64,000 nt of DNA from a phage. Under the pieces are notes generated by a model, which was not told the DNA's origin, did not search any database, and saw only the letters and a program-made list of their open reading frames with translations. The DNA is taken from the NCBI GenBank assembly GCA_036611895.1, contig GCA_036611895.1_4766.1; one strand, given 5' to 3'. A program made the position numbers and the translations under genes. Below, piece after piece: positions 14,395-29,683 of the stretch (positions are counted from its first letter, which is position 1; every line of letters starts with the position of its first letter).

Positions 14395-14673
14395 TTACTC
14401 TGCTTTACTGCCACCATTGGTTTGAACAACAGTTACATTTGTAACCTGGTTCTGACCTTTGTTGGACAGTGCCCAAATCAGTGCTACTACCCAGAATACC
14501 AGTGACCAGCCTAATACGATATTAAGCACACCAATGCCCCACTTAGAGGCATGGCCTCGTGCAAAAGCAATGATAGTAGGGATAAGGTATACAGCTAATA
14601 CAAATAACAGAACAAGGATTGCTGCTAAAGATTCCATGATGGTTCCTATGTGGGGTTGAGTTAGTTTCTTCAC
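14395..14673 (-). CDS. superinfection immunity (Imm-like) inner-membrane protein
   Basis: 92 aa, two TM helices; YLIPTIIAFARGH...NIVLGWSLVFWVVALIWAL matches the motif of the superinfection immunity protein family as I recall it. Confidence 0.55.
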   Translation of the reverse strand: MKKLTQPHIGTIMESLAAILVLLFVLAVYLIPTIIAFARGHASKWGIGVLNIVLGWSLVFWVVALIWALSNKGQNQVTNVTVVQTNGGSKAE

Positions 14674-14710
14674 AAATAGCCCAACAGTGCTGGGCTATTT
14701 AGGCAGCTAC

Positions 14711-14920
14711 TTACTCAGCATCTTTGCTTGCAGGAGCAAGGGCTTTCTTCAGGTAATTACGTACTGAACGATAGGTTTCTTTGGTATCCAAAGTACCATC
14801 ATTTACAAACGAAATACGCGCGCAATCAGACTGCGGAATCTGTTGCACTGCAATCACATTTGCAGCATTAATGGTTAAACGTACATCTGAGGTTGCATGG
14901 GTTACTTGAAATACTGACAT
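14711..14920 (-). CDS. hypothetical protein (69 aa)
   Basis: ORF track. Confidence 0.35.
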   Translation of the reverse strand: MSVFQVTHATSDVRLTINAANVIAVQQIPQSDCARISFVNDGTLDTKETYRSVRNYLKKALAPASKDAE

Positions 14921-14929
14921 GAGTTTTCC

Positions 14930-15436
14930 TTATTTGCTGCTTCTTGCAGCTACTGGTTTGTTTTCCTGGTTCTGATACTTACCATTGTAATTAGCAGGTT
15001 CTTGAACCAGATGAAATAATACTTGAGCTATCCCAGCACCAGCCGGGATATGCAATTTCTTACGACCATGATAGACCAATTCAAGGGTGAGATACCCTTT
15101 CCATCCTGGTTCTATTACGGTATTGAACACTGATAATGCACGTCTTGCCCATGTAGACTTATCGTGAACTATAGCTACGCAGGACGGGGACATGTTGAAC
15201 TTCTCAATTGCTGAAGCCAATGTGAATTTACCGAAATGGCGTGATACTTGATTTCCATCAACAACCTTCACCATTGGAATCAATCCAAATAAGCGATAGA
15301 AGGTAATATCTTGTTTGATACGAATATCATAACCAGCTTCACCCAATCCATAGCTTACACCGTGTTCAGATATCTTACGGTCTGGGACATCCAGCAACTG
15401 GGATGAACGATATAGAGAATTACCATTAACAACCAT
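14930..15436 (-). CDS. dcd: dCTP deaminase / dUTPase-fold enzyme
   Basis: 168 aa. GLGEAGYDIR, AIVHDKSTWARRALSVFNTVIEPGWKGYLTLEL and IPAGAGIAQ resemble dCTP deaminase/dUTPase motifs. Confidence 0.7.
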   Translation of the reverse strand: MVVNGNSLYRSSQLLDVPDRKISEHGVSYGLGEAGYDIRIKQDITFYRLFGLIPMVKVVDGNQVSRHFGKFTLASAIEKFNMSPSCVAIVHDKSTWARRALSVFNTVIEPGWKGYLTLELVYHGRKKLHIPAGAGIAQVLFHLVQEPANYNGKYQNQENKPVAARSSK

Positions 15437-16611
15437 TATTTCATTCCTTTAGGGATATGAACTACCTCCCCAAAAGGTACGGTAGCATTGGGATTATTCA
15501 GAACACACCAGATGATTGGAATATCAAATGGCAATTCTTCCATTGGACGAACATACATATCGGAGAATATGATTGCAGCGGTTGGCTTATTCTTAATAAT
15601 CCAATCTCGTACAGGCACAAGGCTTGTACCACCACGACCTGTAATCTTAATCTCTTCAAAAGTATCTTCTTCAGTGATGTCTATCTCTTCTTGAATAATA
15701 TCGTCGAAAGTAATTAAGGACATCTTCTTAGGGTTGAACTGGCTTTTAACGTAGGCAACCTCTGAGTTAAAACGCAGAGAGTCAGCACTACTAATAGAAC
15801 CAGATACATCCTCAAAGTAGGCTAAGTGACGTAGGCGTCCTTCATCATCTTCCAGGGAAGGTAGATAAATATCAGTGTAACGACGGTTAGGTCTGGCCCA
15901 CGTATAGTGTGTGTCATCAATGTCGGTAAAGAAGTTCATGAGAACTTCCTGCCAAGGAACCACTGGTTTAAGGAATTGGGTAATGACCTCTTCCATACGA
16001 CCAGCACCCTTACCGGGCATCTGTCCACCAGCCATCTTCTGGCTCTGCATTGCACGTACTACGTTGTTGACTACAGCACCCTGGGACTGTCCCGAAGTGG
16101 GGGATTTCATGTCGCCAGCAAGACCTGCTCCAGCACCCCCTGACGGCTTCTGCCTTTTCTGAGGGTTCTTCATCAGGTCATCGTAGATGTCTTCTTCGAC
16201 CCATCCTTTATATTGCGGGTCTTTGCAAATGCCTTCATCAATGCCAGTGAACTTGTAGCCATCTTCTTCTAACTGAAGGTTAATGAAGTGGTCACAAGCC
16301 TGGTTCCATACTTCTGGGTCACGGCTTCCACGACGGATGTCATGTAGATATGCTACATGCCATAGTTCATGCATTAATACTGTTTCTCTTGCATCTGGAC
16401 ACATCCAGATAAAGAAATCAGGATTGAAATGGAGTTCTATCCCATCAGTACATGCAGTGGGACAATCCTCACGTTTCCATGAGAATTTAAGACTACACAG
16501 TAATGAACCAAAGAACGCAGCAGACTTGCCCAGAAAGGCTTGGGCCTGAATACGGTCATACTCACGCATGAGTTGTTCATCACTAAGTGTGTGCTGAGGA
16601 AATTGGTTCAT
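15436..16611 (-). CDS. vWA-like domain protein with HExxH metallopeptidase-like motif (partner of AAA+ ATPase)
   Basis: 391 aa. HELWH motif in N-terminal half; C-terminal vWA-like segment; 8-nt from upstream AAA+ gene. Confidence 0.55.
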   Translation of the reverse strand: MNQFPQHTLSDEQLMREYDRIQAQAFLGKSAAFFGSLLCSLKFSWKREDCPTACTDGIELHFNPDFFIWMCPDARETVLMHELWHVAYLHDIRRGSRDPEVWNQACDHFINLQLEEDGYKFTGIDEGICKDPQYKGWVEEDIYDDLMKNPQKRQKPSGGAGAGLAGDMKSPTSGQSQGAVVNNVVRAMQSQKMAGGQMPGKGAGRMEEVITQFLKPVVPWQEVLMNFFTDIDDTHYTWARPNRRYTDIYLPSLEDDEGRLRHLAYFEDVSGSISSADSLRFNSEVAYVKSQFNPKKMSLITFDDIIQEEIDITEEDTFEEIKITGRGGTSLVPVRDWIIKNKPTAAIIFSDMYVRPMEELPFDIPIIWCVLNNPNATVPFGEVVHIPKGMK

Positions 16612-16618
16612 GTTGTGA

Positions 16619-17671
16619 TTATCCGTGAATGTAACGAGAGATGTTAGCAGCAGCCTTACGCCATTCAGGGGTAGCCTGAAGTTCTGGTAATGCTCTGCCT
16701 ACTGTACGGAAGTACAGAATCTTATGGGTGAACGTTTTAAAGCGTTCAATGTACTGAAGAACTTCAGCGAAATTCTCTTCAGTAGTTTTGTTAGCCAGAT
16801 GGTTAACGGTAGCCCAGCACAGGTTGTTATCTTCCGGTAATGCACAGCCCAGTGGGTCTTTGACTACCTTCTCAATCGTAATGATACGATTATATACCTG
16901 AGTAAACTGAACAAATTCTGTAGCTTTACCGGCAGTAACGTGTCCTGCATAGTAGATAGAATCTTCATCAGGCAGAGCACCTTCTGGTAGGTTCTTGAGG
17001 TCTTTATTAACAAAGTCCCAGGTACGTGGACAACAGAAAGTTTTGTTCTTATGTGCTGGGTCGAAGTCATGCAGGTAACCAGGGTTAGCATGTAAGAATG
17101 CAACCAGACGTTCATCCCATTGTTGGGGAATCATTACATCTTCAACAAAGATGTCGAAGTTAAGTTCCATCTCAAAGTGAACCACACGAGACTGCATTGC
17201 AGTACCCAGAGGATTAACAATGGCACGGTCAGTAGCTTTGTTACCAGCACAGACAATCATCACATTAGGATGAAGTTTTTTCTGACCAGTCATACGGTCT
17301 AGAATTAGTTTGTATGCAGCAGCTACCACTTCTTTCTTAGCTGAGTTGAACTCATCAAGGAACAGGAGCCAGCCATTATAACCTTCGGGTACTTCGTCTC
17401 CCTCAATGGGAAATAAGTCAGCGAATGGTATAAACTCTGCACGGTCACCATTACGGAATGGCAAACCAGACAGGTCTTCCGGGGCAGAAGTAGACAGACG
17501 ATGGTCTATCAGTTTCATACCAAATTCTTCTGCAATAGAACGAATGATTGCAGATTTACCCATGCCTGGTGATGAAGTTAGGAATGGTACGTTACCTGCT
17601 TTCAAAGCACGGATAATAAAGTTACGAGCTTGACGTGAATTACATACGGTCAAGGAGTCAATGCTTGCCAT
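16619..17671 (-). CDS. AAA+ ATPase (MoxR-like)
   Basis: 350 aa. Walker A SPGMGKS, Walker B LLFLDEFN. Confidence 0.8.
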   Translation of the reverse strand: MASIDSLTVCNSRQARNFIIRALKAGNVPFLTSSPGMGKSAIIRSIAEEFGMKLIDHRLSTSAPEDLSGLPFRNGDRAEFIPFADLFPIEGDEVPEGYNGWLLFLDEFNSAKKEVVAAAYKLILDRMTGQKKLHPNVMIVCAGNKATDRAIVNPLGTAMQSRVVHFEMELNFDIFVEDVMIPQQWDERLVAFLHANPGYLHDFDPAHKNKTFCCPRTWDFVNKDLKNLPEGALPDEDSIYYAGHVTAGKATEFVQFTQVYNRIITIEKVVKDPLGCALPEDNNLCWATVNHLANKTTEENFAEVLQYIERFKTFTHKILYFRTVGRALPELQATPEWRKAAANISRYIHG

Positions 17672-17705
17672 TTACTTACTCTCCTAAAGCTAATGGAATT
17701 ACTAA

Positions 17706-18032
17706 TTAAGATTTAATACATGGGTATGCTGTATCAATCGCCAACAGAACCATGTCTGATGGCACTTTTATTGCATTAACCTTTCGGTCATACAGAATAA
17801 TAGTGGCTACCTTGTCAAAGACATTTCCTAACTTCAAATGCTCTGGTACGCAGTTTTTTCCTGCTTCTACGCCCATAGTAACCATGCCCATGAAATAACC
17901 CTGGTTCACAAAGTTTGCATTATTGGCTTTGTAGTCGGCAGCAGCATCCAACAAGGTTTCACGGCTAGATGCTTGGGCATTGAATGACAGAACAGATAAA
18001 GCTACTACAGCAACAGCAATTAAAGTTTTCAT
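17706..18032 (-). CDS. secreted (signal-peptide) protein
   Basis: 108 aa. N-terminus MKTLIAVAVVALSVLSFNAQA has n/h/c signal-peptide organisation with AQA-S cleavage-like site. Confidence 0.5.
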   Translation of the reverse strand: MKTLIAVAVVALSVLSFNAQASSRETLLDAAADYKANNANFVNQGYFMGMVTMGVEAGKNCVPEHLKLGNVFDKVATIILYDRKVNAIKVPSDMVLLAIDTAYPCIKS

Positions 18033-18218
18033 TTAGTTACCTTTTAATTGGTTTAGTTGAAGTACACCGATAGGGGTTAATGACCACCCAAGACCAGCAT
18101 TGAACTGTACTAAGCCCAGCTTCTTAAGAGACTGTGCGGTTTTGTTATTACGGTTGCTGGTGGCAGAACCACCTTGAACCATACGAAGGAATATTGCTTG
18201 GGACTGGGTTAATTTCAC
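18033..18218 (-). CDS. hypothetical protein (61 aa)
   Basis: ORF track; abuts neighbours. Confidence 0.35.
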   Translation of the reverse strand: MKLTQSQAIFLRMVQGGSATSNRNNKTAQSLKKLGLVQFNAGLGWSLTPIGVLQLNQLKGN

Positions 18219-18475
18219 TCATCTTCTCCTTCATCTGGGAGTGGTGATAAATCTACACCTAAATGCTCAAAGCGTTTTTCTAAGACAGCAATCCTCTTTT
18301 GATAAAATGACAGCAGTTCAGGAAGTATTCTTGTACGAGCTTGTGGTCCTAAATCCGTACCATTGAATGATACTTTCACCATATGTGGTGACTTCTTCAA
18401 ACTAGCTAATTGCTGTCGGTTGTCGTTGTATTCTTCATACAGTTTTTCAACCAAACGTAGATTATGAATATTCAT
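18215..18475 (-). CDS. hypothetical protein (86 aa)
   Basis: ORF track; 4-nt overlaps both sides. Confidence 0.4.
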   Translation of the reverse strand: MNIHNLRLVEKLYEEYNDNRQQLASLKKSPHMVKVSFNGTDLGPQARTRILPELLSFYQKRIAVLEKRFEHLGVDLSPLPDEGEDE

Positions 18476-18660
18476 TTCTTCTCCGGTACGAACTGCATTA
18501 CACAGTTTTGATTACGAGGGATATTAAGTTCACATTCATGTTTGAGGGTTTGTGTTACAGAGTTTGGAGTAGAACCAAAGTAGGTATTAGATATAGCTAC
18601 AAATCCTGCACCTATTAAACCACCTAGCAAGAATGAGAAGAATGCAATCTCTTTATACAT
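18472..18660 (-). CDS. small membrane protein (start adjusted to internal ATG with GGAG RBS)
   Basis: ORF track 18472..18693; internal Met MYKEIAFFSFLLGGLIGAGFVAI preceded by GGAGCCAGGAA. Confidence 0.4.
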   Translation of the reverse strand: MYKEIAFFSFLLGGLIGAGFVAISNTYFGSTPNSVTQTLKHECELNIPRNQNCVMQFVPEKK

Positions 18661-18721
18661 TTCCTGGCTCCAGATGTAGAAAACCCCAGTCAATGCTGGG
18701 GTTTATCTATCAGTTTATACT

Positions 18722-18982
18722 TTATAGACCGTGTGGTCGGCATAGACTACCTGAACCAAAGGAACGATGTCCAAGTCGGCCCAGGATTAGGTTGCTTACT
18801 TCAGCAGCAGCACGACTGAATGCTTTAAAGTCAAAGACTACGATACCAAAGAGTGGGGCTGCGATAGCAGCTACCATGATTGGCGTCAGGTCAACCAGTG
18901 ACATACCCAAGATTAAGTGAGCAGCGTAGGCAATAATACCCATTCCAACACCACAACCATATCCAATAGCAATTTTACGCAT
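18722..18982 (-). CDS. small membrane protein (86 aa, two hydrophobic segments)
   Basis: GMGIIAYAAHLILGM and IMVAAIAAPLFGIVVF hydrophobic stretches. Confidence 0.45.
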   Translation of the reverse strand: MRKIAIGYGCGVGMGIIAYAAHLILGMSLVDLTPIMVAAIAAPLFGIVVFDFKAFSRAAAEVSNLILGRLGHRSFGSGSLCRPHGL

Positions 18983-19049
18983 AGTTACCTTCTTAGTTAG
19001 TAGATTGATACATATTCATATAACAGACAAACAATAGTCAAAAAAAGAC

Positions 19050-19078
19050 CTCCCTTCAATAGGGAGGTCAAGCTTGGG
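19050..19078 (-). terminator. intrinsic terminator after decoration-protein gene
   Basis: gacctccc-ttcaata-gggaggtc hairpin preceded on plus strand by a7 (U-run after hairpin on minus strand). Confidence 0.5.
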
Positions 19079-19119
19079 AGTTTTATTTCAGGGTTTATAA
19101 CCCCAAACAAAGGATACCC

Positions 19120-19953
19120 TTATTCTGCAACAGTAACAGGGATGGTTACATCGACAGTACCATTGGTAACTACTACAGAAGTAGCATCACCAGCAGCAAC
19201 TGGTTTAACCGTCAGTACGTTACCAGCAATGGTAGCTGTAGCACGACCGGATTCTGGAGCAGTCTTGATAGACAAAGTACCGACAGATGAGCCAACAGGC
19301 ATAGCAACAATCGTTACGTTCTTACCATCAGTAGTATCAGCAGCAACAGACAGAGCCAGTGAAGCTGGAGTAGCTACCAATGAGCTTGCTTCGTAGTAGC
19401 CTACAGCCAGCAGCGACTCATCTTCTACAGTGGTTCCATTAGCATCGGTAACAATCACTTTGTAAGTACCAGCAGAAGCAGCTGTTACGCCATTAAGAGA
19501 CAATGTTGCAGTAGCAGCGGATTCATTCTCACCTGAATCAATATCAGCGAATGCTGCACCAGCAGTATTAGTTTTGAATTGCCATTTATAAGTAAATGGT
19601 GCTTTACCACCTGCTACATCAACATGCCAGTTAATATCCTCACCTTCGATAGCAGAGACTACACGAGGCAGTTTGGTAGCAATAGTCAGTCGTGGAGTAG
19701 CCTTCATCTCAATAGAGATAGCCTGCATATCCACGATGTTGTTAGGCCAGAAGCCTTCTTCAGCAGGGTTTTTGGCAGAGCGTTTATACAGCAGATCACG
19801 AACACCATGAAAGATAACTAAGCTATCTGGATAAGTGGCATCTGGATGTACAAAGGTTCCTACTTCTACGGAACCACCTGGGATAGAGCCATTGGCATCC
19901 AGTACAGTTGCAACATTAGTGGTTTTGTTAAAACCTACTTTTAAAGTTGGCAT
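19120..19953 (-). CDS. capsid decoration protein-like, Ig-like (Big-type) domains
   Basis: Start moved to internal ATG with AGGAAA RBS (MPTLKVGF...). Ig-like repeats (TYKVIVTDANGTT, VTNGTVDVTIPVTV); position just downstream of RNAP II genes matches N4 gp17 synteny as recalled. Confidence 0.55.
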   Translation of the reverse strand: MPTLKVGFNKTTNVATVLDANGSIPGGSVEVGTFVHPDATYPDSLVIFHGVRDLLYKRSAKNPAEEGFWPNNIVDMQAISIEMKATPRLTIATKLPRVVSAIEGEDINWHVDVAGGKAPFTYKWQFKTNTAGAAFADIDSGENESAATATLSLNGVTAASAGTYKVIVTDANGTTVEDESLLAVGYYEASSLVATPASLALSVAADTTDGKNVTIVAMPVGSSVGTLSIKTAPESGRATATIAGNVLTVKPVAAGDATSVVVTNGTVDVTIPVTVAE

Positions 19954-20027
19954 ATCAATTTCCTCATAAGTAAATAGCAGAGTTAGTATACATGACAGAT
20001 AAAAAAATAAACCCTCCGTTAAGAGGG

Positions 20028-20210
20028 TTAGTTGTTTACACAGTAGATAGCAAAAGCTATCCATCCTGCTATTACAAAGCAGCCTAGTGAGTATGCTCCA
20101 TAGTAGTAATAAGCAAACTTAGACTTGTGGGCATGGACTATCGTAGACAGAACCAGTACAGATAAAACTATCAGTATTAGCTGAAAGATTACTTCAAAAG
20201 GGATTAGCAT
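20028..20210 (-). CDS. small membrane protein (start adjusted to internal ATG with GGAGGT RBS)
   Basis: ORF track 20028..20243; MLIPFEVIFQLILIVLSVLVL hydrophobic helix. Confidence 0.4.
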   Translation of the reverse strand: MLIPFEVIFQLILIVLSVLVLSTIVHAHKSKFAYYYYGAYSLGCFVIAGWIAFAIYCVNN

Positions 20211-20235
20211 AGTTGTTACCTCCAAGCAAAAAATA

Positions 20236-20262
20236 TGCCTCACTCCCGAAGGAATGAGGCTA
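20236..20262 (-). terminator. intrinsic terminator-like hairpin after RNAP II large-subunit gene
   Basis: gcctca...tgaggc stem preceded on plus strand by caaaaaat. Confidence 0.4.
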
Positions 20263-20267
20263 GTTTA

Positions 20268-21485
20268 TTAACTTAATGCATAGTCTGTTTCAAGAATGTC
20301 CTGCCAGAGGCTGTCATCCAGCTTACCAGCAGAGAACTCTTGTCCCAGTACCTGAGACAGGATGAAGCCTAGCAGGTCACTCTTAGCAATGTCAGACAGA
20401 ATCTGATTGTACTGACGACGTAGGTCATTACCGTAGTTAGGATGGCAACGGAAGCAGTCATGTACAGTCATTACAGGGAATGGTTTCTTAGGCATAGTGT
20501 CAATCATATCTGCTACTACCTGATGGTCTACATAAGCAATAGTGCATGGGTCAAGATAATCCAGGATTGATACGGATAGGAAGCCAGATTTCTCATAATG
20601 GCTCCACAGCTCCTGTACTTTCTCCAGATTGCCTGCAATCTCCCCATATTCTGATGGACCATCCTCACAGAGTTCTCGCACAGCTTCCACTAAGTCACGG
20701 TCGAAGTTACAACGACGCAGCATCTCACGCACCACCATCCCATCAATAGAGTGGGTGATGTTAGCAGAGAGCATACGAGTCTTCTCTTCTGTGCCCTGAA
20801 CCATACGAGTGATGTCGAATGGCTTACCTAAGAAGTTAACAGTCTGTACTTCAGGAATCATGACCTTAATGACAGCGTGGAAGTTGTCAGGCAGTACCCA
20901 TACGTAACGGTTGGCATCTGGATTACCACATTGCAGTAAGAACTTGTTAAGTGCCCAAGGACCACTAGCAACAGTTTCCATTACATTCTCAAAAGTCTTG
21001 AGACGAATACCTTCACCGAATACTTCTTTAGGCTTGGCTTCTGAGCCGTAGAATGCAGTCATAACTGCCTGCTTAGTGTCACTACGTTTAATACGAGATG
21101 CTTCACCAAGGATGTCCAGCATCTTGTGATAGATAACTGTATAGGCATCACGACGTAATGGCTTACCATTCTCTCCCATGTAGTTAACTACGTTACACAG
21201 TTCAGCAGCAGAACGGTCACCAGTCAGGCAAGCCAGTAACTGCAATCCGGATGATGTAGCATCCAGGGCTACGGCATAACCAATAGGCTTACCTGCTTTC
21301 ATATCTTTCCATGCATTTATACCTGCAAAGAACAGAGCAGAATCTTCAGCTTCATCTACCAGATTAAGCAGGTTAGCTTCGTTCTCATCGAACCAGGAGA
21401 TACGCTCATCCCATGTCTTTTTATCTAAGCCATAGTTATTAGCAATATCTACTTTCAGGTATTCACGAGCGGTTAACAGTTGCAT
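20268..21485 (-). CDS. phage RNA polymerase II, catalytic (C-terminal-type) subunit, T7-like single-subunit RNAP fold
   Basis: 405 aa. ALDATSSGLQ resembles T7 motif A (DGSCSGIQ); RSDTKQAVMTAFYGS resembles motif B with K-to-Y spacing of 8; MTVHDCF resembles motif C. RBS AAGGAA upstream. Confidence 0.85.
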   Translation of the reverse strand: MQLLTAREYLKVDIANNYGLDKKTWDERISWFDENEANLLNLVDEAEDSALFFAGINAWKDMKAGKPIGYAVALDATSSGLQLLACLTGDRSAAELCNVVNYMGENGKPLRRDAYTVIYHKMLDILGEASRIKRSDTKQAVMTAFYGSEAKPKEVFGEGIRLKTFENVMETVASGPWALNKFLLQCGNPDANRYVWVLPDNFHAVIKVMIPEVQTVNFLGKPFDITRMVQGTEEKTRMLSANITHSIDGMVVREMLRRCNFDRDLVEAVRELCEDGPSEYGEIAGNLEKVQELWSHYEKSGFLSVSILDYLDPCTIAYVDHQVVADMIDTMPKKPFPVMTVHDCFRCHPNYGNDLRRQYNQILSDIAKSDLLGFILSQVLGQEFSAGKLDDSLWQDILETDYALS

Positions 21486-21539
21486 TTTATGTTCCTTTTG
21501 CTTCTTGGCTCTCCACTATGGAGAGCCTGCTTATTGGAT

Positions 21540-21656
21540 TTATTTACGTTTACGTTTACGTTTGGCCTCTGCCTCACGTTTGAGAGCTTCGTTAATACGC
21601 TTTAACACTAGTTCTCTGTGAGCATAGAAGTCAGCTACTGCACGATGATTAATCAT
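21540..21656 (-). CDS. candidate 38-aa highly basic micro-protein (C-terminal KRKRKRK)
   Basis: Hand translation MINHRAVADFYAHRELVLKRINEALKREAEAKRKRKRK; ATG overlaps stop of upstream RNAP II small-subunit gene (ATGATTAA). Below ORF-track size cutoff. Confidence 0.3.
   Translation of the reverse strand: MINHRAVADFYAHRELVLKRINEALKREAEAKRKRKRK
21543..21563. repeat. (ACGTTT)3 perfect tandem hexamer repeat
   Basis: tttacgtttacgtttacgttt read directly; encodes the KRKRKR tail of the micro-ORF on the minus strand. Confidence 0.8.
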
Positions 21657-22467
21657 TGTTTACTAGCTCCTTATCAGCGAACTCCAGTACAGCTTTGTTG
21701 TAGCTGGTTCCCTGATAGTTGATGTGGTAGCCGCAGGCATATGTACGCCCACGTTTGTCATACTTGTGAGCCAGTGAGAAGTTATTACCTTCTTTGGTTA
21801 CTAACTCCATTACTTCCTTAGCTGTACGGCTGTACTTCTCAAAGGCTTTAACACGTTTCTCATAGTCCTGACGGGTTTCACCCTCTTTGGGTTTATCCAT
21901 GTTAGGACGAGAGTCTTTTACATAGTTAGCAACGTCCCAGTTAATACAGAGACGTTGGTTATTCATACGGTTGATGTGGTCAAGACAGACATCCATCTCA
22001 TGATGGTTCTTCTTGAGGATGATGCTACCTCTGCTTTCATAGTAACCAGTATCACGATTACACAGAACAGGCTTAGGAGCACTTACGATAGGCAATGGAT
22101 ACTGGAATGCTTCCAGTTCCATCTGAACATCTTCACTAATCTCATAGATAACACCGAACTTGTCGATGGTAGGGTCATAGTTGAAGCAGTCATTCTCTGC
22201 CATCTTATATAGGCAGTCAGCGATGTACTGAGCATCATCTGAGTGACTCATGAGAGAGCCAATCATAGTTTGGATGTCAGCACGTTTATGTAAGGCAATC
22301 TGCACCATTGCATCAATGAGCAGCTTATAATCAATTTCTAAATAGGCAGCGAATGCCTTAAAGTCAATTTCTTCGGAGTCCTCGAATTCCTTCCTCATGC
22401 GAGGGAGTAATTGATTCTTGTTGAAAAGGATTTCAAGTCGCTTCTGATGTTCAATAGATGAGTACAT
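21649..22467 (-). CDS. phage RNA polymerase II, N-terminal-type subunit
   Basis: 272 aa. KYDKRGRTYACGYHINYQG resembles the T7 RNAP DxRGR region; directly upstream of the catalytic subunit. Confidence 0.7.
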   Translation of the reverse strand: MYSSIEHQKRLEILFNKNQLLPRMRKEFEDSEEIDFKAFAAYLEIDYKLLIDAMVQIALHKRADIQTMIGSLMSHSDDAQYIADCLYKMAENDCFNYDPTIDKFGVIYEISEDVQMELEAFQYPLPIVSAPKPVLCNRDTGYYESRGSIILKKNHHEMDVCLDHINRMNNQRLCINWDVANYVKDSRPNMDKPKEGETRQDYEKRVKAFEKYSRTAKEVMELVTKEGNNFSLAHKYDKRGRTYACGYHINYQGTSYNKAVLEFADKELVNND

Positions 22468-22494
22468 CGCTTATTCTCCTAAATATGATTAATA

Positions 22495-22520
22495 ACCAAA
22501 AGCTGCGGAGCAGCTATTAC
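22495..22520 (-). promoter_or_regulatory. vRNAP-type hairpin promoter candidate (P-d), 45 nt upstream of RNAP II gene
   Basis: agctgc-gga-gcagct: 6-bp stem, GGA loop, same architecture as the three hairpins at 26.98-28.16 kb; preceded by aaccaaa. Confidence 0.45.
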
Positions 22521-22781
22521 CTAACGCTTAGTCCAAAAGGTAATACGAATACTGTTTTCATTACCGATGTAGTCGATGCGTACATGCAGACCATTACCAT
22601 TAAACTCATTACTTTTCTTCTGATAAGGCCAGACTAGGCTAGTCATAGGTATTTTGATGAAACCAGATATGTGGCCTAGCTTAGTACGACTCTTTAATTC
22701 ATTTTGTAATGCACAATAGATGTCGTGCCGTGTGAGTGCTCTGGCTCTGACTTGAGCAGACCATAATTCTTCATATGTCAT
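22521..22781 (-). CDS. hypothetical protein (86 aa)
   Basis: ORF track. Confidence 0.4.
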   Translation of the reverse strand: MTYEELWSAQVRARALTRHDIYCALQNELKSRTKLGHISGFIKIPMTSLVWPYQKKSNEFNGNGLHVRIDYIGNENSIRITFWTKR

Positions 22782-23161
22782 GAGAAGGTTCCCCAGTAGA
22801 TATAATCATCTCCCAGAATGGGCTTCCAGGCTTCGTCAAACATGACATTGCCAGTAGCATTGGCAAACATAGGAGCGATTTCTTCATCCTTATAGCCAGC
22901 TAATCCACAACCAATACGTGTTACTTTAAAGTCCCACTCTGGATGTGCTGCTGCATACAGGATAAATGCTTCAACGAATGTTTTAATGTCTTCTAAGGAC
23001 ATAGTCTTTATTGACTGGTCTTTGGTTGGAATTGCATAGCTGCAACCATAATGGCCTACGCCCATACCCCAACGAGCACCATGCTTTTTATATGCAACTT
23101 TCGCTGCACCAGCACCGTGACGACCTGCTAAATTACTTCCGAATACAAAGACTTCTTTCAC
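22778..23161 (-). CDS. hypothetical protein with glycine-rich nucleotide-binding-like N-terminus
   Basis: 127 aa. VFVFGSNLAGRHGAGAAKVA and IGCGLAGY motifs; family not assignable by eye. Confidence 0.45.
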   Translation of the reverse strand: MKEVFVFGSNLAGRHGAGAAKVAYKKHGARWGMGVGHYGCSYAIPTKDQSIKTMSLEDIKTFVEAFILYAAAHPEWDFKVTRIGCGLAGYKDEEIAPMFANATGNVMFDEAWKPILGDDYIYWGTFS

Positions 23162-23340
23162 ACTAACCCCCTTACTTCTTTATAGAATTTAACAGCGTCT
23201 TCCTGAGTTTCAGGCTTAACTTCATAAACATAGTCAAGAGCTTGTTCGTGGTCTTTCTGTTCCTTCTTGGTTCTACAATGACCACATTTACCATCCCATT
23301 GGGATACATGGCCTTTACCACATTTGCATTGTTTATTCAT
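23158..23340 (-). CDS. zinc-ribbon small protein (start adjusted)
   Basis: CKCGKGH...CGHC four-Cys motif; ATG overlaps stop of upstream gene. Confidence 0.4.
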   Translation of the reverse strand: MNKQCKCGKGHVSQWDGKCGHCRTKKEQKDHEQALDYVYEVKPETQEDAVKFYKEVRGLV

Positions 23341-23713
23341 TAGGATTCTCCACAAAATAGTTATATATAGCCTTTACTAGCTTCTCTTTAATAACCTCAC
23401 CATGACAAGGTTTTGGATAACAGAAGCACTGTAAGGCCAATCCTTTCTCGTCAATGGCTTTATTACCAAGACGATTAAGTTCATCCAGTACAACTGGATT
23501 CTTTCTCATGATTTGTTCATTAAGCCATACTCGATACTTGGCTATAACCTGTTCTCTCGAACCGTCTTTACCAATGACAAATGGATTGCCTAATGGTGAG
23601 CCACGCCCAATATACTCACCGGATTTACTGTGATGTTTATTAACAATAGTAATTGATCGTGCAGTTACACCCATTAGAGTATCTGTGTTATTACCTATTG
23701 AAATAGTCTTCAT
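23333..23713 (-). CDS. hypothetical protein (126 aa) with GNPF and CxC...CHG motifs
   Basis: RGSPLGNPF ... CFCYPKPCHG; resembles a DUF-type family common in phages, identity not verifiable here. Confidence 0.45.
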   Translation of the reverse strand: MKTISIGNNTDTLMGVTARSITIVNKHHSKSGEYIGRGSPLGNPFVIGKDGSREQVIAKYRVWLNEQIMRKNPVVLDELNRLGNKAIDEKGLALQCFCYPKPCHGEVIKEKLVKAIYNYFVENPNE

Positions 23714-24024
23714 GGTTTAAGTACCTGGAATGGGAACACAGGACGTTTACTACGCCACTGGTTCATAGCTAATTCACTGGTTTCAGAACCATCATGTAAG
23801 TCATAGATAAATGAGATTACATAGTCTGGTTCTTCCGGGAAGTTCTCTGTAGAGAATGGTAGCCCAGATTCCTTAAGGATAGGAACCAGTGGTGATTCAG
23901 CATTACAATAGAGGGTAAACTCTTCATTAAATGCCTGGCTTGTCTGAGATACATAATCAATATTACGCATCATCTTATCTACATCAGTAAATGTAGAATC
24001 ATGAACTACTAGAATAGTTTTCAT
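23710..24024 (-). CDS. hypothetical protein (104 aa)
   Basis: ORF track; 4-nt overlaps with neighbours. Confidence 0.45.
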   Translation of the reverse strand: MKTILVVHDSTFTDVDKMMRNIDYVSQTSQAFNEEFTLYCNAESPLVPILKESGLPFSTENFPEEPDYVISFIYDLHDGSETSELAMNQWRSKRPVFPFQVLKP

Positions 24025-24275
24025 ACCTTTCTTAATGTCCCATAGATGTTATTATCGACAATATTCAAATCACAAAAACCAATCTCTTCTTGTCTCCCAG
24101 AGGATACCCAGATATTGTTTTCTGTTAGCTTAGGCTTTTTAGAGAATCCTATTAGTGAGGTATTAGCACTCTTATATTGACGAGGTAGTAATGCTATATA
24201 CTTAACCCAGTGAGGCACTTGAATAGTATGCTTCATATATTCCACAGTCTTGCCTGTAGGATATGTAATAATCAT
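24021..24275 (-). CDS. hypothetical protein (84 aa)
   Basis: ORF track. Confidence 0.4.
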   Translation of the reverse strand: MIITYPTGKTVEYMKHTIQVPHWVKYIALLPRQYKSANTSLIGFSKKPKLTENNIWVSSGRQEEIGFCDLNIVDNNIYGTLRKV

Positions 24276-24632
24276 TTAGTACCTTACAACATATACGGGT
24301 TTATTAAGCCTATTCATGATATCAATCATGTGCTTGGTTCCTTTGGAATTACCATCCCAGAAGCACACAGCAGCATCTGCAAATTCACCCATTTCTTTAT
24401 TCCTACGGAATCCAGCAGATTTGCCATAGGTATCCCATTCAGCAGGGAATACATGTATCTGCATATTTGCAGATTTCCATAGATGGAAAGCTAATATATC
24501 TGCTCCACGAGCCATACCACATACCAATTCTGGGCATTCCGGTATATTCCCTGAATTTACTAACTTCTGTAATTCCTCAATCATACGATTGGTATTTACG
24601 AAGTCTCTCCCACCAGCTACAATCAGTCTCAT
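24276..24632 (-). CDS. SLOG/DprA-LOG-like Rossmann-fold protein
   Basis: 118 aa. RLIVAGGRDF ... GMARGADILAFHLW ... VCFWDGNSKGT resemble the Smf/DprA-LOG (SLOG) superfamily signature. Confidence 0.45.
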   Translation of the reverse strand: MRLIVAGGRDFVNTNRMIEELQKLVNSGNIPECPELVCGMARGADILAFHLWKSANMQIHVFPAEWDTYGKSAGFRRNKEMGEFADAAVCFWDGNSKGTKHMIDIMNRLNKPVYVVRY

Positions 24633-24850
24633 TTCTGATACCCCTGTATATAGTTAATACGGCGAATACGTTGAGTAGATGCCTTAACAGCTATCTGTTG
24701 ATTCTCTTCTTTATGCTGATTATTCAGGATCTTATCCCATTCCTTCTGGTTCCGTTGTTTCTGTAGAATACGACTACACTTCTTATGATTAGCAACTCCT
24801 CTTCCTTTATTGCAAATCGGGCAAATACCATAATTAGTGCTGAACAACAT
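24629..24850 (-). CDS. zinc-ribbon small protein
   Basis: CPICNK ... HKKC motif. Confidence 0.4.
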   Translation of the reverse strand: MLFSTNYGICPICNKGRGVANHKKCSRILQKQRNQKEWDKILNNQHKEENQQIAVKASTQRIRRINYIQGYQK

Positions 24851-24862
24851 TTTGTTTATTCC

Positions 24863-25096
24863 TTAGTAAGTATATTCAAGAGAGGTTTTACCATCTGTAT
24901 GACATACAGATACTTTACTATCTATGAAGTACATCTTGTTATTAATACGTACTTCATCAATAGAGAAATTGCTAAAAGGTTTAGAGTACACCTTACGAAC
25001 AATAGTTCTGTTAGTACCCTTTAGTTTAATTCGGGCATAACCTTTTCGGTCAACGAATATCTCATTACCTACAATTACATCACTGAGGTTGTTCAC
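24863..25096 (-). CDS. hypothetical protein (77 aa)
   Basis: ORF track. Confidence 0.4.
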   Translation of the reverse strand: MNNLSDVIVGNEIFVDRKGYARIKLKGTNRTIVRKVYSKPFSNFSIDEVRINNKMYFIDSKVSVCHTDGKTSLEYTY

Positions 25097-25397
25097 TTAG
25101 TGCCTCCAGTAGTATTTTACGAATAACATTTACATCAGATTCAGTACCAATTAAACCAACAGGTTTACCTGTACTATCTGTTACAAAGGATGCAATCCTT
25201 TCCATCTCTGCTGTAATTAACTTGTCACCACTAATAAGACGATTACGAAGGTAAGCTTCATAAGCTACCTCTACATCTTCTACCGTGGTTCTTTCATTAC
25301 GAGTGAATGGATTACTTAATGGGAAAGGTAAGTGGATACGTATATTCCGGTCAGCTATCTTAGCTGAATGGGGAAGTATACAAACAATTTCATTCAA
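25080..25397 (-). CDS. hypothetical protein (105 aa)
   Basis: ORF track. Confidence 0.4.
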   Translation of the reverse strand: MNEIVCILPHSAKIADRNIRIHLPFPLSNPFTRNERTTVEDVEVAYEAYLRNRLISGDKLITAEMERIASFVTDSTGKPVGLIGTESDVNVIRKILLEALSEQPQ

Positions 25398-25647
25398 GGT
25401 TATTTCTCCTATTTAAATACATATCTAACTATTCAAGAATAAAAAATAGAAGCCCTCCTAATGGAGGACTCCCAGTTCTACTAATGCACCATAGGTTAAT
25501 AGTGCAAACATGGTTATTGAGATAAGCCAGTTCATTTGAACGCATCCGGGTGATTGAAGGTAACAATCTTACGTACTGGTTCAGATGTCTTTTTCTTAGC
25601 AGCCAGACGCTCTTTCATCTTCTGTACGTCTTCTTTGGTTCCCATGA

Positions 25648-25830
25648 TTAATGACTTACGCATGATTTAGTACTCCACATAAAGTTAAAAGGTTTACTGT
25701 TACGTACAATTCTTACAACCATTTGATAGCCATTGAGTTGTACAACACCATAGTGTCGTTTCTGTACACCAGTGTGATACCTACGAAAGATACACTCTTC
25801 AATGGCATCTTCTATGTTAGTGAATATCAC
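25648..25830 (-). CDS. hypothetical protein (60 aa)
   Basis: ORF track. Confidence 0.35.
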   Translation of the reverse strand: MIFTNIEDAIEECIFRRYHTGVQKRHYGVVQLNGYQMVVRIVRNSKPFNFMWSTKSCVSH

Positions 25831-26045
25831 TGGTTCCTCTTTGCAAACTCTTCGGCTTCCTTAGCCCAGAGTTGCTTACGATCTTCTTTAGCTACGATGG
25901 AAGCAAACAGGCATTTAACGAATACAACTGGTAACTTACAAATAAGTACCAGCTTAGTAATTACCCACTTGGCTCCATTGAGAATGTAACCACGTAGGTG
26001 ATAAAGCACATAACAGAGTATTACAAACGCAATGAAGTCCAACAT
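25827..26045 (-). CDS. small membrane protein (72 aa)
   Basis: MLDFIAFVILCYVLYHL hydrophobic N-terminus. Confidence 0.4.
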   Translation of the reverse strand: MLDFIAFVILCYVLYHLRGYILNGAKWVITKLVLICKLPVVFVKCLFASIVAKEDRKQLWAKEAEEFAKRNQ

Positions 26046-26047
26046 AG

Positions 26048-26347
26048 TTAGTCCTTACAGTTAATGAATTGAGAATGTAATTCACCATTACAGATATTCA
26101 TACCATCTTCATAGTATGGCTCACCTAGTTCTTCATAGTAGGCTTTGTCATCAGGATGTGGTCTAACCACCAGGTCAAATGCAGGTAATTGACTGCCACC
26201 ATCAATCACGTTGAGTAAGCTGAATATAGCTCCCTCAATACGTTCAGTAGTATCTCCTCCATCTGGAGTATTTGCCCAGTAATGTACAATTTCTTTAGCA
26301 TTAAGTAGGAATTTATTCCTTACTTCTTCCTCAGTAAGTGCTCTCAT
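26048..26347 (-). CDS. acidic early protein (99 aa)
   Basis: ORF track; Asp/Glu-rich composition (DKAYYEELGEPYYEDG). Confidence 0.45.
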   Translation of the reverse strand: MRALTEEEVRNKFLLNAKEIVHYWANTPDGGDTTERIEGAIFSLLNVIDGGSQLPAFDLVVRPHPDDKAYYEELGEPYYEDGMNICNGELHSQFINCKD

Positions 26348-26444
26348 TTAGTACATATCCTCTTCTAATATAAATCTATATCTATCTGGTTACTGTTTCA
26401 GTACCCTTCGTCTAAAGATACTCAAAAAGTAGAAATAGCTTATC

Positions 26445-26475
26445 GTCTAGTTAAAAATAAAAGACTCCCCGAAGG
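26445..26475 (-). terminator. intrinsic terminator after first early gene of promoter P-c
   Basis: gactccc-cgaa-gggagtc hairpin preceded on plus strand by aaaaataaaa. Confidence 0.45.
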
Positions 26476-26490
26476 GAGTCTATTGGTTGA

Positions 26491-26871
26491 TTAGAAAGTC
26501 AGTTTACGAGCATATTTATTCTCGTCTGCTGGGATGTCAGCAGCCTCTGCTTTCACACGACGAAGTTGAACTTGCAGGTTAATGATACCTTCTTCACCTG
26601 GTTCCAGGTTCTGAGCATATGCGATTAACTGTTCCAGCAAGTCGTTCTGTGCACAACGCATAGCACGGAAGTCAGCATTGCTGCTATTGGTAGGCAGCGG
26701 TTCCTGAGTATCCAGTGGAATACCAGTAGGCAGTGAGATGAATTTCTCATCATCAGAGCCTTCATTAGCCACATAACCAATGTTCAGCCAGAACTGAGCT
26801 TTTGGTTTGTCAGTTTTAGCAGTAGAAGCAGTATCGTTAGACTGACCGAAAGTGAATTTTTGAATAGACAT
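26491..26871 (-). CDS. early protein (126 aa; start at internal ATG with GGAGAG RBS)
   Basis: ORF track 26491..26964; annotated first ATG lies only about 19 nt from promoter hairpin centre with no RBS, internal Met (MSIQKFTF) has one. Confidence 0.5.
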
Positions 26872-26969
26872 TTTGTACTCTCCAGATTTATGTGATTTAC
26901 GGGTGAACTCGTCGGTGAGAACACCCAAACAAAAGGATAAAAGTTCAATGATTAGTGGATGCATTTACA

Positions 26970-27000
26970 TCATCCATAAGACGCGGAGCGTCTTGGTTTT
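26970..27000 (-). promoter_or_regulatory. vRNAP-type hairpin early promoter (P-c)
   Basis: tccataa-gacgc-gga-gcgtc-ttggtttt: 5-7 bp stem with GGA loop; conserved flanks shared with P-b. Confidence 0.6.
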
Positions 27001-27003
27001 GGC

Positions 27004-27273
27004 TTACCAATACATAGCTGCTGTGCCTTCTTCGGCAAAGAACTCATCTAAGCTGTTTTGATTTTCTTTACGGAACTGACGACGCAGCTTACGGATTTGT
27101 TTCTTGGTAGGTTTAGCAGGGAAACTGTAGTCAACAACCAGAGGCATTCTGGTTTCTTCACATACTTCAGAGAACCATAACTGCCACTCTGCTGCAGCAG
27201 GGATGTGTTGCTGCTTACCAAAAACCGGTTGCTTAGTACCACCAACATAGAACAGGTCAGTATTAAATTGCAT
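27004..27273 (-). CDS. early protein (89 aa)
   Basis: ORF track; RBS CAGGAG upstream; about 44 nt downstream of P-b hairpin. Confidence 0.5.
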   Translation of the reverse strand: MQFNTDLFYVGGTKQPVFGKQQHIPAAAEWQLWFSEVCEETRMPLVVDYSFPAKPTKKQIRKLRRQFRKENQNSLDEFFAEEGTAAMYW

Positions 27274-27299
27274 GAGTAAACTCCTGAATTAAAATGATA

Positions 27300-27325
27300 T
27301 CCAATAGAAGCGGAGCTTCTTGGTT
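27300..27325 (-). promoter_or_regulatory. vRNAP-type hairpin early promoter (P-b)
   Basis: tccaata-gaagc-gga-gcttc-ttggtttt; matches the N4 early promoter hairpin as I recall it (GAAGCGGAGCTTC). Confidence 0.6.
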
Positions 27326-27326
27326 T

Positions 27327-27698
27327 TTAAGGAATGTAGGACAACCAGGTTAATAGTTCTGCTTTAGCTTTCTGATACTTACTGTCTACAGTTTCATCTG
27401 AGATATCTATGTCTGATTCTCCGTAATGATGGATGTCAGACTGATATTGCTCTTGCTGGCGAATGGCTTCCTCGAATCTATTTAATGCTTCAATAGGTTC
27501 TTGTTTTTGCCATACCCATAAAGCACCTGCAAGAGGTAGATTGTCATCTTTGTACCAACGTGGTCCTATTCCAGATACACACTTTAATTTACTATCTTCA
27601 GTAAGAATGAATCTTCCTGGTGAGTGAAATTTTCCTACTAGTTCTGTTCCTACAGGAACATCTTTAGTTAATGATTTTACGCAAATGTACTTAGCCAT
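27327..27698 (-). CDS. early protein (123 aa)
   Basis: ORF track. Confidence 0.5.
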   Translation of the reverse strand: MAKYICVKSLTKDVPVGTELVGKFHSPGRFILTEDSKLKCVSGIGPRWYKDDNLPLAGALWVWQKQEPIEALNRFEEAIRQQEQYQSDIHHYGESDIDISDETVDSKYQKAKAELLTWLSYIP

Positions 27699-27785
27699 TA
27701 TCTATCTCCAAAGTAGATAGTTATCTACTTTTGACTATCTATCTAATGTTCAAAACAGGAGACTCCGAAGAGTCTCCTTGATGAC

Positions 27786-28109
27786 TTAGTCTTTAGTCAG
27801 GATGTCAATTACTTTGGAATATTCTGCGTTATAGATCCGAGCGTTCTCTGAATCCTTGCAGAATTCCTCGATACTTTTCTTACGCAGAGTCTCAGTCATA
27901 GCTGTTTCCTCTGCCAGTTTATTAACAAAGGTATGCATTTCTAATTTAGTACGAATGGCTTGTTTCTCTGCCATAGTACTAACATATGAATTAAGCATAC
28001 CTACTGCTTTAGTTGCTGTGCTGAATGTATCTGCAACAGTAGTAGCAGCTGAGTTAACAGTACCAAGTAAAGTTCCTGCGGTCATACGTACAGTAGCTTG
28101 AGTAGTCAT
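27786..28109 (-). CDS. early protein (107 aa), first gene downstream of P-a
   Basis: ORF track; about 49 nt downstream of P-a hairpin centre. Confidence 0.5.
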   Translation of the reverse strand: MTTQATVRMTAGTLLGTVNSAATTVADTFSTATKAVGMLNSYVSTMAEKQAIRTKLEMHTFVNKLAEETAMTETLRKKSIEEFCKDSENARIYNAEYSKVIDILTKD

Positions 28110-28145
28110 GATGATAGCTCCAATAGTTGATGATAGGACGACATG

Positions 28146-28168
28146 TCCATAACATGCGGAGCATGTGT
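28146..28168 (-). promoter_or_regulatory. vRNAP-type hairpin early promoter (P-a)
   Basis: tccataa-catgc-gga-gcatg: same stem/GGA-loop architecture and tccataa flank. Confidence 0.55.
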
Positions 28169-28343
28169 AACGTGTAAGGTGGGGTAGGGTAGTGGCTACA
28201 CCGTCAACATACCGGGGGGGCTAGTTGAGTGTAAGGGTGTAGCCCCAGCCACACCACTATGGCTGTACATAGCTATCACAATTTTGACATGCAAAAATAT
28301 TATAGGCACTATCTCTATAAGCAGATAACTTTGAGGTACTAAC

Positions 28344-28472
28344 ATGAAAGATGGATGGGGTAACTACAATCCTACAGACCCTGAGAACTGGCTTCACTTT
28401 ATTGCATGGGCTTGCGCTGTAGGATTCATAAGTATTGTGCTCTTATCACTGGTTCTATCTTATCTGTAAATA
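28344..28472 (+). CDS. candidate 42-aa single-pass membrane micro-protein on the opposite strand
   Basis: MKDGWGNYNPTDPENWLHFIAWACAVGFISIVLLSLVLSYL; GAGGT 6 nt upstream of ATG; TTGACA hexamer about 55 nt upstream; hairpin follows stop. Confidence 0.3.
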
Positions 28473-28473
28473 C

Positions 28474-29072: not shown

Positions 29073-29075
29073 ACT

Positions 29076-29680: not shown

Positions 29681-29683
29681 GGC

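Follow-up and report, generated by a model that had tools for sequence, protein, structure and literature searches.

The spacer between the RNA polymerase II subunit genes of a G7C-like phage: a probable optional gene cassette beside a constant gp16 leader

The N4-like phages are a model for transcription by three successive polymerases. This report deals with the spacer between the two genes for the phage RNA polymerase II (RNAPII), namely gp15 for the small subunit (RNAP1) and gp16 for the large subunit (RNAP2), in a stretch of phage DNA of 64,000 nucleotides (GenBank assembly GCA_036611895.1, contig GCA_036611895.1_4766.1), which as a whole is called the window hereafter. The genome belongs to a Gamaleyavirus (G7C-like, family Schitoviridae, a relative of coliphage N4), 61 phage records match the 2.3-kb region around the spacer at 90-96% identity, and all genes of the locus are carried by the minus strand (Table 1). 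The original prediction, made from the letters of the window, had described a 163-bp spacer with a 38-codon open reading frame (ORF), a hexamer repeat and a hairpin, and all of these are present where it had placed them. Taken singly, neither the micro-ORF nor the repeat nor the hairpin exceeds chance: ORFs of 30 amino acids (aa) or more are plentiful (89 in 9 kb), 0.42 hairpins with a 9-bp stem and a 3-nt loop are expected per shuffled window and one is seen, and the window has 18 small tandem arrays, (AAACGT)3 being the best perfect one of period 6. These features stand above chance because they are conserved in relatives. The reading favoured here, with a probability of roughly 0.6, is that the spacer consists of two independent things, an optional gene cassette and, beside it, a constant 5' leader of gp16 with a stem-loop.

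Table 1. Features of the gp15/gp16 locus in the window, with position, strand and the evidence or a remark.
Feature	Position	Strand	Evidence or remark
gp15, RNAPII small subunit (RNAP1), 272 aa	21649..22467	-	translation; stop TAA 21651-21649
gp16, RNAPII large subunit (RNAP2), 405 aa	20268..21485	-	translation
Spacer gp15/gp16	21486-21648	-	163 bp
Micro-protein gene, 38 aa, MINHRAVADFYAHRELVLKRINEALKREAEAKRKRKRK	21540..21656	-	dN/dS, homologue clusters, predicted helix
Portable linker GATAAGGAGCTAGTAAACAATG (last gp15 codons, Shine-Dalgarno sequence and ATG of the next cassette)	21654..21675	-	recurrence at junctions
Shine-Dalgarno sequence AAGGAG inside gp15	21672-21667	-	10 nt upstream of the micro-ORF ATG
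In-frame microsatellite (AAACGT)3+AAA, encoding KRKRKRK	21543..21563	-	Tandem Repeats Finder score 42, 100% matches
Constant gp16 leader, ATCCAATAAGCA-hairpin-AAGAAGC-AAAAGGAAC (Shine-Dalgarno)-ATAAA	21486..21539	-	54 nt before the gp16 ATG
Stem-loop GGCUCUCCA-UAG-UGGAGAGCC	21507..21527	-	centroid energy -16.7 kcal/mol; conserved position
Motif CAAGAAGC, adjoining the hairpin on its 3' side and shortly preceding the gp16 Shine-Dalgarno sequence	21500..21507	-	recurrence before gp16
N4-type vRNAP promoter hairpin (template AGCTGC-GGA-GCAGCT) upstream of gp15	22501..22515	+	heptamer, conservation
Canonical intrinsic terminator, 10-bp stem and T-run, directly after gp16	20237..20260	-	terminator scan

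The micro-ORF was expected to start with an ATG overlapping the gp15 stop and to end in KRKRKRK, and this is what is found: its ATG (21656-21654) and the stop share ATGATTAA. With this overlap and the Shine-Dalgarno (SD) sequence upstream of it within gp15, translation by coupling to gp15 is the most likely mode. Over its first 31 codons the pairwise ratio of nonsynonymous to synonymous divergence (dN/dS) is 0.03-0.25, well below 1, with synonymous divergence of up to about 0.8-0.97, which is near saturation, and insertions and deletions are in frame only. A profile search of 5.8 billion proteins gave 24 clusters of 35-41 aa, and the long contigs that bear them are of about 70 kb and N4-like in each case. 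Furthermore, after an exhaustive search of 1.8 billion cluster representatives with a hidden Markov model, the enlarged family comprised 15 clusters at the 50% level, with lengths of 31-66 aa and one protein of 138 aa having the motif at its C-terminus. The family has an invariant core, F-x2-H-R-x2-V-x3-I, typically (D/N)FY(A/D)HR(K/E)LVL(K/E)RI, followed by a basic tail of variable sequence, and the core residues persist in relatives of just 34-50% identity. A single continuous helix is predicted by AlphaFold2 for residues 4-37 (mean predicted local distance difference test score, 92). Judged by this pattern of substitution and conservation, the micro-ORF is a genuine gene under purifying selection, and the earlier proposal of a small basic peptide is borne out to the extent that the dN/dS values, the family clusters and the modelled helix show a real gene for a basic, predicted helical peptide.

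The micro-gene nearly always adjoins the RNAPII genes, even where the identity of gp15 is 39-55%, and the order of the genes varies: gp15, micro-gene and gp16 in L119; gp15, a gene of 104 aa and the micro-gene, which overlaps the gp16 start, in L120; gp15, an HNH gene, a duplicated gp15 end and the micro-gene in L122 and L012; the micro-gene followed by gp15 in L123 and by RNA_pol in P0036 (an NCBI assembly). In L070 a variant annotated as 60 aa lies directly after gp15; tblastn matches of this variant to Rhizobium and Streptomyces phages, with E of 2 or more, were taken as chance. Two short contigs (L117 and L118) have no RNAP gene within reach of the micro-gene, and the association is accordingly strong but perhaps not universal. 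Sequence searches of Pfam, PHROG and the PDB gave no match to the micro-protein.

The spacer is swapped wholesale among relatives, and both flanks remain 90-99% identical. In a survey of about 40 Enquatrovirinae loci, the slot is empty in N4 and BEU14 (47 nt) and in EC1-UPM (56 nt). It holds the micro-ORF only in the window phage, CU10EC, L014, L046 and L115, the micro-ORF together with an 80-aa ORF in E20 and L037, and an unrelated 53-aa ORF (phrog_15352) in St11Ph5, PhAPEC7, ECBP1 and others. Combinations are also found, the 53-aa and 80-aa ORFs in IME11 and the 53-aa ORF with the micro-ORF in L042. In addition, at least four endonuclease genes occupy the slot, namely two HNH types, an endonuclease VII-like type and a 193-aa type, and in more distant Schitoviridae one to six other small ORFs lie between gp15 and gp16. 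Different endonuclease genes at one site, with changed or duplicated flanks, are the mark of a homing-endonuclease hot-spot, and the slot is already known as a hot-spot at which homing endonucleases and ORFans insert. In the window itself it contains the 38-aa ORF alone, in which Pfam and PHROG searches gave no nuclease motif. The micro-gene is thus one of several alternative occupants, and it is optional and dispensable.

How the cassettes are joined can be read from the end of gp15. Its last approximately 20 nt, GATAAGGAGCTAGTAAAYRATG, are by their recurrence a portable ribosome-binding linker, which reappears as non-coding DNA between stacked cassettes (S53 to S80 in L010 and S53 to the micro-ORF in L042). 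Because the linker recurs at cassette junctions, the stop-overlapping ATG is regarded as a feature of the linker. In the empty-slot genomes AAGGAG is destroyed by synonymous codons (GATAAAGAATTAG in EC1-UPM and GAAAAAGAAG in N4), and because of this loss the SD inside gp15 appears to be kept only when a downstream cassette needs it. In genomes that carry an endonuclease in the slot, gp15 has another C-terminus (…VED) and an SD positioned for their own TAATG start. Moreover, a duplicated gp15 3' end (residues about 252-272) lies between the inserted HNH gene and the micro-ORF in L012 (2282-2344) and in the very distant L122 (about 1683-1722). This duplicated end resembles the footprint of an endonuclease insertion that brought its own copy of the gp15 end. 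In E20 (L005, 1620-1675) and L037, a truncated form-B leader (ATCCAAATGCGAGCCAAGAGGAC…) stands after the micro-ORF, the 80-aa ORF being inserted into the leader, and in E20-type genomes a complete form-A leader then precedes gp16. Because E20-type genomes retain the truncated form-B leader after the micro-ORF, their arrangement suggests that the micro-ORF first travelled with the form-B hairpin and that the arrangement in the window is a recombinant.

The leader of gp16 behaves differently from the slot. Regardless of the cassette, its identity is 95-100% among more than 40 Gamaleyavirus records; it is also present in EC1-UPM with its empty slot and in the Enquatrovirus Jura, and N4 has a variant form of it. 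The hairpin within it (ggctctcca-cta-tggagagcc on the plus strand) has a perfect 9-bp stem with 6 G-C pairs and a 3-nt loop; the centroid energy of its RNA, -16.7 kcal/mol, corresponds to z = -3.2 against shuffles, and the gp16 SD is unpaired in the predicted RNA fold. The perfect stem is found in the window and in ShWW44. Position 21512 is A in the window and G in most relatives, where the sense strand consequently has a U·G pair and the antisense strand a C·A mismatch. Other stems stand at the same spot, all between the same flanks: GAGCC-NNNN-GGCUC with a varying loop in Mimir124, L012, L014, L038 and KP8; GGGC-NNNN-GCCC in L039 and L045; a GGGC/GCUC stem with another sense-strand G·U in JZBo1; and a 4-bp AGCC/GGCU stem in N4. 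A covariance model found exactly one copy per genome, always before gp16. In two of the five modelled pairs both sides are changed; the score for covariation is 0.376 against 0.242 for shuffles (reached by 0 of 500) and is also above all slid controls, these values being derived from only about four independent stem types and a model-fitted alignment in which form B is offset by one column.

Because of the G·U wobbles and the alternative stems at one position, these comparisons point to a sense-strand RNA structure, in line with the RNA element of the original prediction. When the hairpin was deleted in silico, the mean opening energy of the ribosome-binding site rose from 3.09 to 3.84 kcal/mol, with an increase in 16 of the 21 natural contexts. 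Peptide and RNA element had, however, been taken for one device, and this part did not survive, the micro-ORF being optional and the hairpin present with every cassette type. Nucleic-acid binding as the task of the peptide and subunit stoichiometry as that of the hairpin, both suggested in the original prediction, are conjecture. Absence of the spacer from close relatives, which the original prediction had named as evidence against itself, is found for the micro-ORF (the slot is empty in N4 and EC1-UPM) but not for the hairpin. A hairpin before gp16 is not general in Schitoviridae: at 60 loci the mean best energy is -8.3 kcal/mol, versus -8.8 kcal/mol for coding controls. The hairpin was also considered as a repeated mobile element and rejected, being single-copy in the window and in every relative, and an Rfam scan gave only a chance-level hammerhead match inside gp15 (15.7 bits versus a gathering score of 52).

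The sequence CAAGA(A/C)GC adjoins the 3' side of every hairpin form. In 8 of 45 distant lineages, AAGA[AC]GC occurs in the 45 nt that precede the gp16 ATG, versus 0.79 expected (P about 2e-6, some of the loci being interrelated). The leaders of the distant lineages with the motif (L052, L054, L066, L069, L071, L094 and L027) are otherwise unalignable, and their gp16 is only 40-55% identical. Furthermore, the 9-mer CCAAGAAGC is the sense-strand upstream arm of a promoter hairpin of the virion RNA polymerase (vRNAP) at 27296-27320, and the promoter at 26972-26995 has the variant CCAAGACGC. At 14909-14946 on the minus strand of the window, an SD and an ATG come after another small hairpin, GCTGC-AAGAA-GCAGC, within which AAGAAGC is found, an architecture loosely similar to that of the gp16 leader.

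As for transcription, four N4-type vRNAP promoter hairpins were recognized (28141-28168, 27296-27320, 26972-26995 and 22501-22515, the plus strand being the template), all with the GCGGAGC heptamer and the arrangement (A)TCCA(A)TA…stem-GGA-stem. The last of them is shared by N4, Jura and most Gamaleyaviruses; its stems covary (AGCAGC/GCTGCT, GGGTGC/GCACC), and its loop is invariant. Because it lies directly upstream of gp15 and is conserved, the unit of gp15, cassette and gp16 probably has its own early promoter there. At the other end, PhAPEC7 and Jura have annotated terminators at the place equivalent to the terminator after gp16. In phage LUZ7, ORF21 and RNAP2 are separated by a strong canonical terminator with a 12-bp stem, a TTCG loop and a T-run (L026, about 1225-1260), which places the large-subunit gene of that lineage behind a real terminator.

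The anatomy of the locus, its conservation and the selection acting on it are shown by these comparisons, and the molecular functions of the peptide and the hairpin are inferred as follows. An early polycistronic mRNA would start at the promoter upstream of gp15, span gp15, the cassette and gp16, and end at the terminator; the cassettes are exchanged by recombination at short shared junctions. The stem-loop would form in the sense-strand mRNA between the upstream stop and the CAAGAAGC-SD-ATG block and would act post-transcriptionally as an intercistronic stabiliser or processing barrier; it would be a fixed structural buffer that keeps the initiation of gp16 constant whatever cassette lies upstream. 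The micro-protein would act on RNAPII or on its nucleic-acid template, and because of the persistent RNAPII linkage and the basic tail, a non-essential role tied to either of the two is the most likely one.

Several points weigh against this picture. The covariation is built on the few independent stem types and the model-fitted alignment mentioned above, the L013/L036 and L047/L048 lineages are without an intact element, and the hairpins of forms B-D and of N4 are weak (-4 to -7 kcal/mol), no stronger than the background of coding regions. The insulation effect calculated in silico is small, and reversing one arm of the hairpin gives no consistent effect. In addition, the micro-protein is absent from N4 and many close relatives, so that any role with RNAPII is non-essential, and it is without detectable homology to anything of known function in Pfam, PHROG or the PDB. 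The literature yielded no expression, ribosome-profiling or RNA-end data at the spacer for G7C-like phages or N4.

The hairpin admits other explanations, all of them concerned with how gp16 is expressed. It might be an attenuator or terminator that lowers the transcription of gp16 relative to gp15 and so sets the subunit stoichiometry. Its stem is stable and GC-rich, true intrinsic terminators with T-runs stand at the equivalent position in LUZ7, L061, L085 and L099, and leaky terminators are common in LUZ7 (PMC9163698). However, the sense strand after the stem reads AAGAAGCAAAAGG, all other terminator-like sites of the early region have T-runs, and a marginal T-rich tail is seen on the antisense strand only (TGCTTATTGG); because there is no sense-strand U-tract, the hairpin is not a canonical terminator, GC-rich stem-loop though it is. 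The stems of N4, KP8 and Mimir124, moreover, are of only 4-5 bp, and a 1:1 heterodimer offers no obvious reason for under-production of gp16, and attenuation is regarded as unlikely. A second use of a hairpin in such phages is as a promoter, and the hairpin with CAAGAAGC might drive a separate gp16 transcript by a phage RNAP, either vRNAP or RNAPII, since N4-like polymerases use hairpin promoters. In LUZ7 the middle promoters are GC-rich hairpins (stem of at least 6 bp, loop of 3-4 nt) with transcription starting at a G some 15 nt further downstream (PMC9163698), and here G residues follow the loop centre at 13 and 16 nt. The identity of CCAAGAAGC with the upstream arm of the 27296-27320 promoter in the same orientation and the retention of AAGA[AC]GC before gp16 in distant lineages also speak for a promoter. 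On the other hand, vRNAP requires a GC-rich heptamer with its centre at -11 as well as -11A/G, -10G and -8G (PMC4496689), whereas the loop on the template (plus) strand is CTA, the GCGGAGC heptamer is absent and these determinants are missing. Nor does the hairpin have the vRNAP geometry, in which the stem is of 5-7 bp, the spacer is 4 nt long and 11 nt separate +1C from the loop centre: with its loop centre at -11, its 9-bp stem would fill -1 to -9, and the start-like ATCC is found at 19 nt from that centre on the other strand. The stem on the template strand has a C·A mismatch in most relatives where the RNA-sense strand has a tolerated U·G, the distance from the loop centre to the motif is 13, 10 or 9 nt depending on the form, the stem base always abutting the motif, and the RNAPII promoters of N4 have an AT-rich stretch from -7 to +2. 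A promoter at this place is therefore considered very unlikely on these counts. The leader might also be a translational operator, its hairpin and CAAGAAGC being bound by a phage protein (RNAPII or the micro-protein) that regulates the synthesis of gp16. The DNA polymerase gp43 of T4 is a repressor of the mRNA that encodes it, by way of a hairpin beside the SD, and the likeness lies in this layout of a hairpin next to an SD. Hairpin, conserved single-stranded motif and SD do lie directly upstream of a polymerase gene, and the motif is conserved far past alignable sequence. Yet the forms have entirely different hairpin sequences, which speaks against a binder that recognises the stem by its sequence, and the element is present with or without the micro-ORF, which makes an operator rather improbable.

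The micro-ORF has been weighed in two opposite directions. At one extreme, the DFYxHR-helix micro-protein would be an unrecognised, widespread accessory factor of RNAPII, a third mini-subunit or template-binding cofactor made in step with the subunits, and the leader with the hairpin and CAAGAMGC would be a deeply conserved operator tuning gp16 synthesis; a low probability is given to this combination. At the other extreme, the micro-ORF would be a non-functional leftover, either a decayed fragment of a homing endonuclease or a chance ORF arising from the gp15 stop context, and the repeat would be neutral. The micro-ORF is indeed short and domainless, is missing in many close relatives, lies within a region of endonuclease traffic and has its first residues, MI(N/K), partly set by the C-terminal codons of gp15. 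But purifying selection is strong despite nearly saturated synonymous sites, the core is retained at 34-50% identity, the length changes are all in frame, the place beside the RNAPII genes is kept in lineages diverged by about 50%, and similarity to the slot endonucleases or to a single-chain-RNAP linker is lacking, so that a leftover is scarcely credible. An optional cassette beside a constant, structured leader is preferred to all of these.

The hexamer repeat belongs to the cassette. On the plus strand it is a perfect array of 3.5 TTTACG units. Three copies are found in the window phage, P0006 and L115, the (AAACGT)3 of L115 sitting on a different N-terminal background, and two copies in CU10EC, L042, L046 and several clusters. 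The tail is made of two-codon units that vary among relatives, (KR)2/(KR)3, (AK)1/(AK)2 and (EA)2/(EA)3, all in frame. The repeat is best read as ordinary replication slippage tolerated in a compositionally constrained basic tail, and this slippage would merely set the length of that tail. The suggestion of repeat-driven slippage is thus upheld as far as the copy number of two or three among relatives is concerned, but not as a programmed frameshift, the 6-nt unit being always in frame. The 6-nt unit, the lack of an X XXY YYZ site and a hairpin that begins 12 nt past the stop all speak against programmed frameshifting and phase variation.

The variable spacer has been described before. HNH endonucleases between RNAP1 and RNAP2 in G7C and EE36P1, 0-8 spacer genes and an endonuclease inside RNAP2 were reported by Amgarten et al. 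(2017, BMC Genomics 18:346, PMC5418858), who proposed that insertion of a homing endonuclease split an ancestral single-chain RNAP. The locus is the same, and the four or more endonuclease types of the slot, the split gp16 and the seamless junction described here agree with that work, which is without the 35-41 aa micro-protein family and its RNAPII linkage, the SD linker, the duplicated gp15 ends and the leader hairpin. The additions made here are the RNAPII-linked micro-protein family ('hypothetical protein' if annotated), the SD linker with the duplicated gp15 ends, and the constant gp16 leader with its motif; the locus is a modest refinement of the published setting and nothing categorically new. 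Known cases of free-standing homing endonucleases at the genes of an essential enzyme are T4 mobE between nrdA and nrdB and the split nrdA of Aeh1, the latter also cited in PMC5418858. As in these cases, endonucleases lie between or in essential genes and the flanks are co-converted, the C-terminal codons of gp15 shifting with the cassette and being duplicated in L012 and L122; unlike them, the slot of the window holds a small non-nuclease ORF and no endonuclease. Intercistronic stem-loops, such as the repetitive extragenic palindromic (REP) hairpins of malE-malF and phage intergenic hairpins, stabilise or insulate polycistronic mRNA. The stem-loop of the gp16 leader is like the malE-malF hairpins in being stable, free of a U-tract, probably conserved in structure and placed between a stop and the next ribosome-binding site, and is unlike REP hairpins in being single-copy. 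A further comparison is with the promoter-early stem-loop (PeSL) cassettes of the hyperplastic regions of T4-type phages. Small ORFans are shuffled at short conserved regulatory junctions in both systems, but the place of a sigma-70 promoter with a stem-loop is taken here by a coding end with its SD and by a leader, and no circular intermediates are known. Finally, the leader hairpin resembles the N4 vRNAP promoters (PMC4496689) as a short hairpin with a 3-nt loop in the early region that shares the 9-mer CCAAGAAGC with the promoter at 27296-27320, and differs from them in its loop and stem determinants, in its geometry and in mismatches that favour RNA over template DNA.

The cofactors of RNAPII, not all of which are known, vary by lineage, with gp1/gp2 in N4 and Drc in LUZ7 (PMC4496689, PMC7145618). 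A basic, predicted helical micro-protein whose gene keeps its place beside those for RNAPII in deep lineages is a candidate for a further cofactor, of interest because almost everything else in the slot turns over, and the constant leader with CAAGAMGC is a defined candidate for a cis element controlling the expression of the large subunit. The SD linker and the duplicated gp15 ends add mechanistic detail to the published idea of endonuclease traffic as a force shaping, and perhaps creating, the split polymerase. If both micro-gene and leader were free of phenotype, the locus would merely be a well-described hot-spot of phage plasticity.

Turning to the flanking genes, gp15 is 94-99% identical to the annotated RNAP1 or subunit B of Gamaleyavirus phages, and 490 phage records match gp16. 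Residues 202-272 of gp15 align to residues 261-332 of the single-chain T7-like RNAP of cyanophage S-TIP37, and residues 6-267 of gp16 align to its residues 333-628, so that the gp15|gp16 junction is seamless (332|333). An origin of the micro-ORF as a relic of a linker in a single-chain RNAP was rejected, gp15 and gp16 lying back to back on the S-TIP37 RNAP with no room between them and no similarity being found; its origin as a fragment of a slot endonuclease was rejected for want of similarity to these endonucleases.

Endonuclease genes also occur within gp16, in L050 (271-2292), L051, L049, Moonfish and JWDelta. Such a gp16 is divided into two ORFs that overlap in a stretch of about 15 residues, present twice (q1-156 | endonuclease | q142-405), and this interruption is the same process as that proposed in the literature for the split of gp15 and gp16. 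In the Shigella phage pSb-1 (L007/L015), gp16 is annotated as two overlapping ORFs, q1-310 and q250-405, which are likely due to a frameshift or a sequencing error and not to an insertion. Over positions 14000-30000 of the window, matches to sigma-70-like promoters are strongly depleted (9 versus 41.9 ± 6.6 in shuffles) and terminator-like sites are enriched (29 versus 9.7), and both fit an early/middle region that is not read by the host RNA polymerase.

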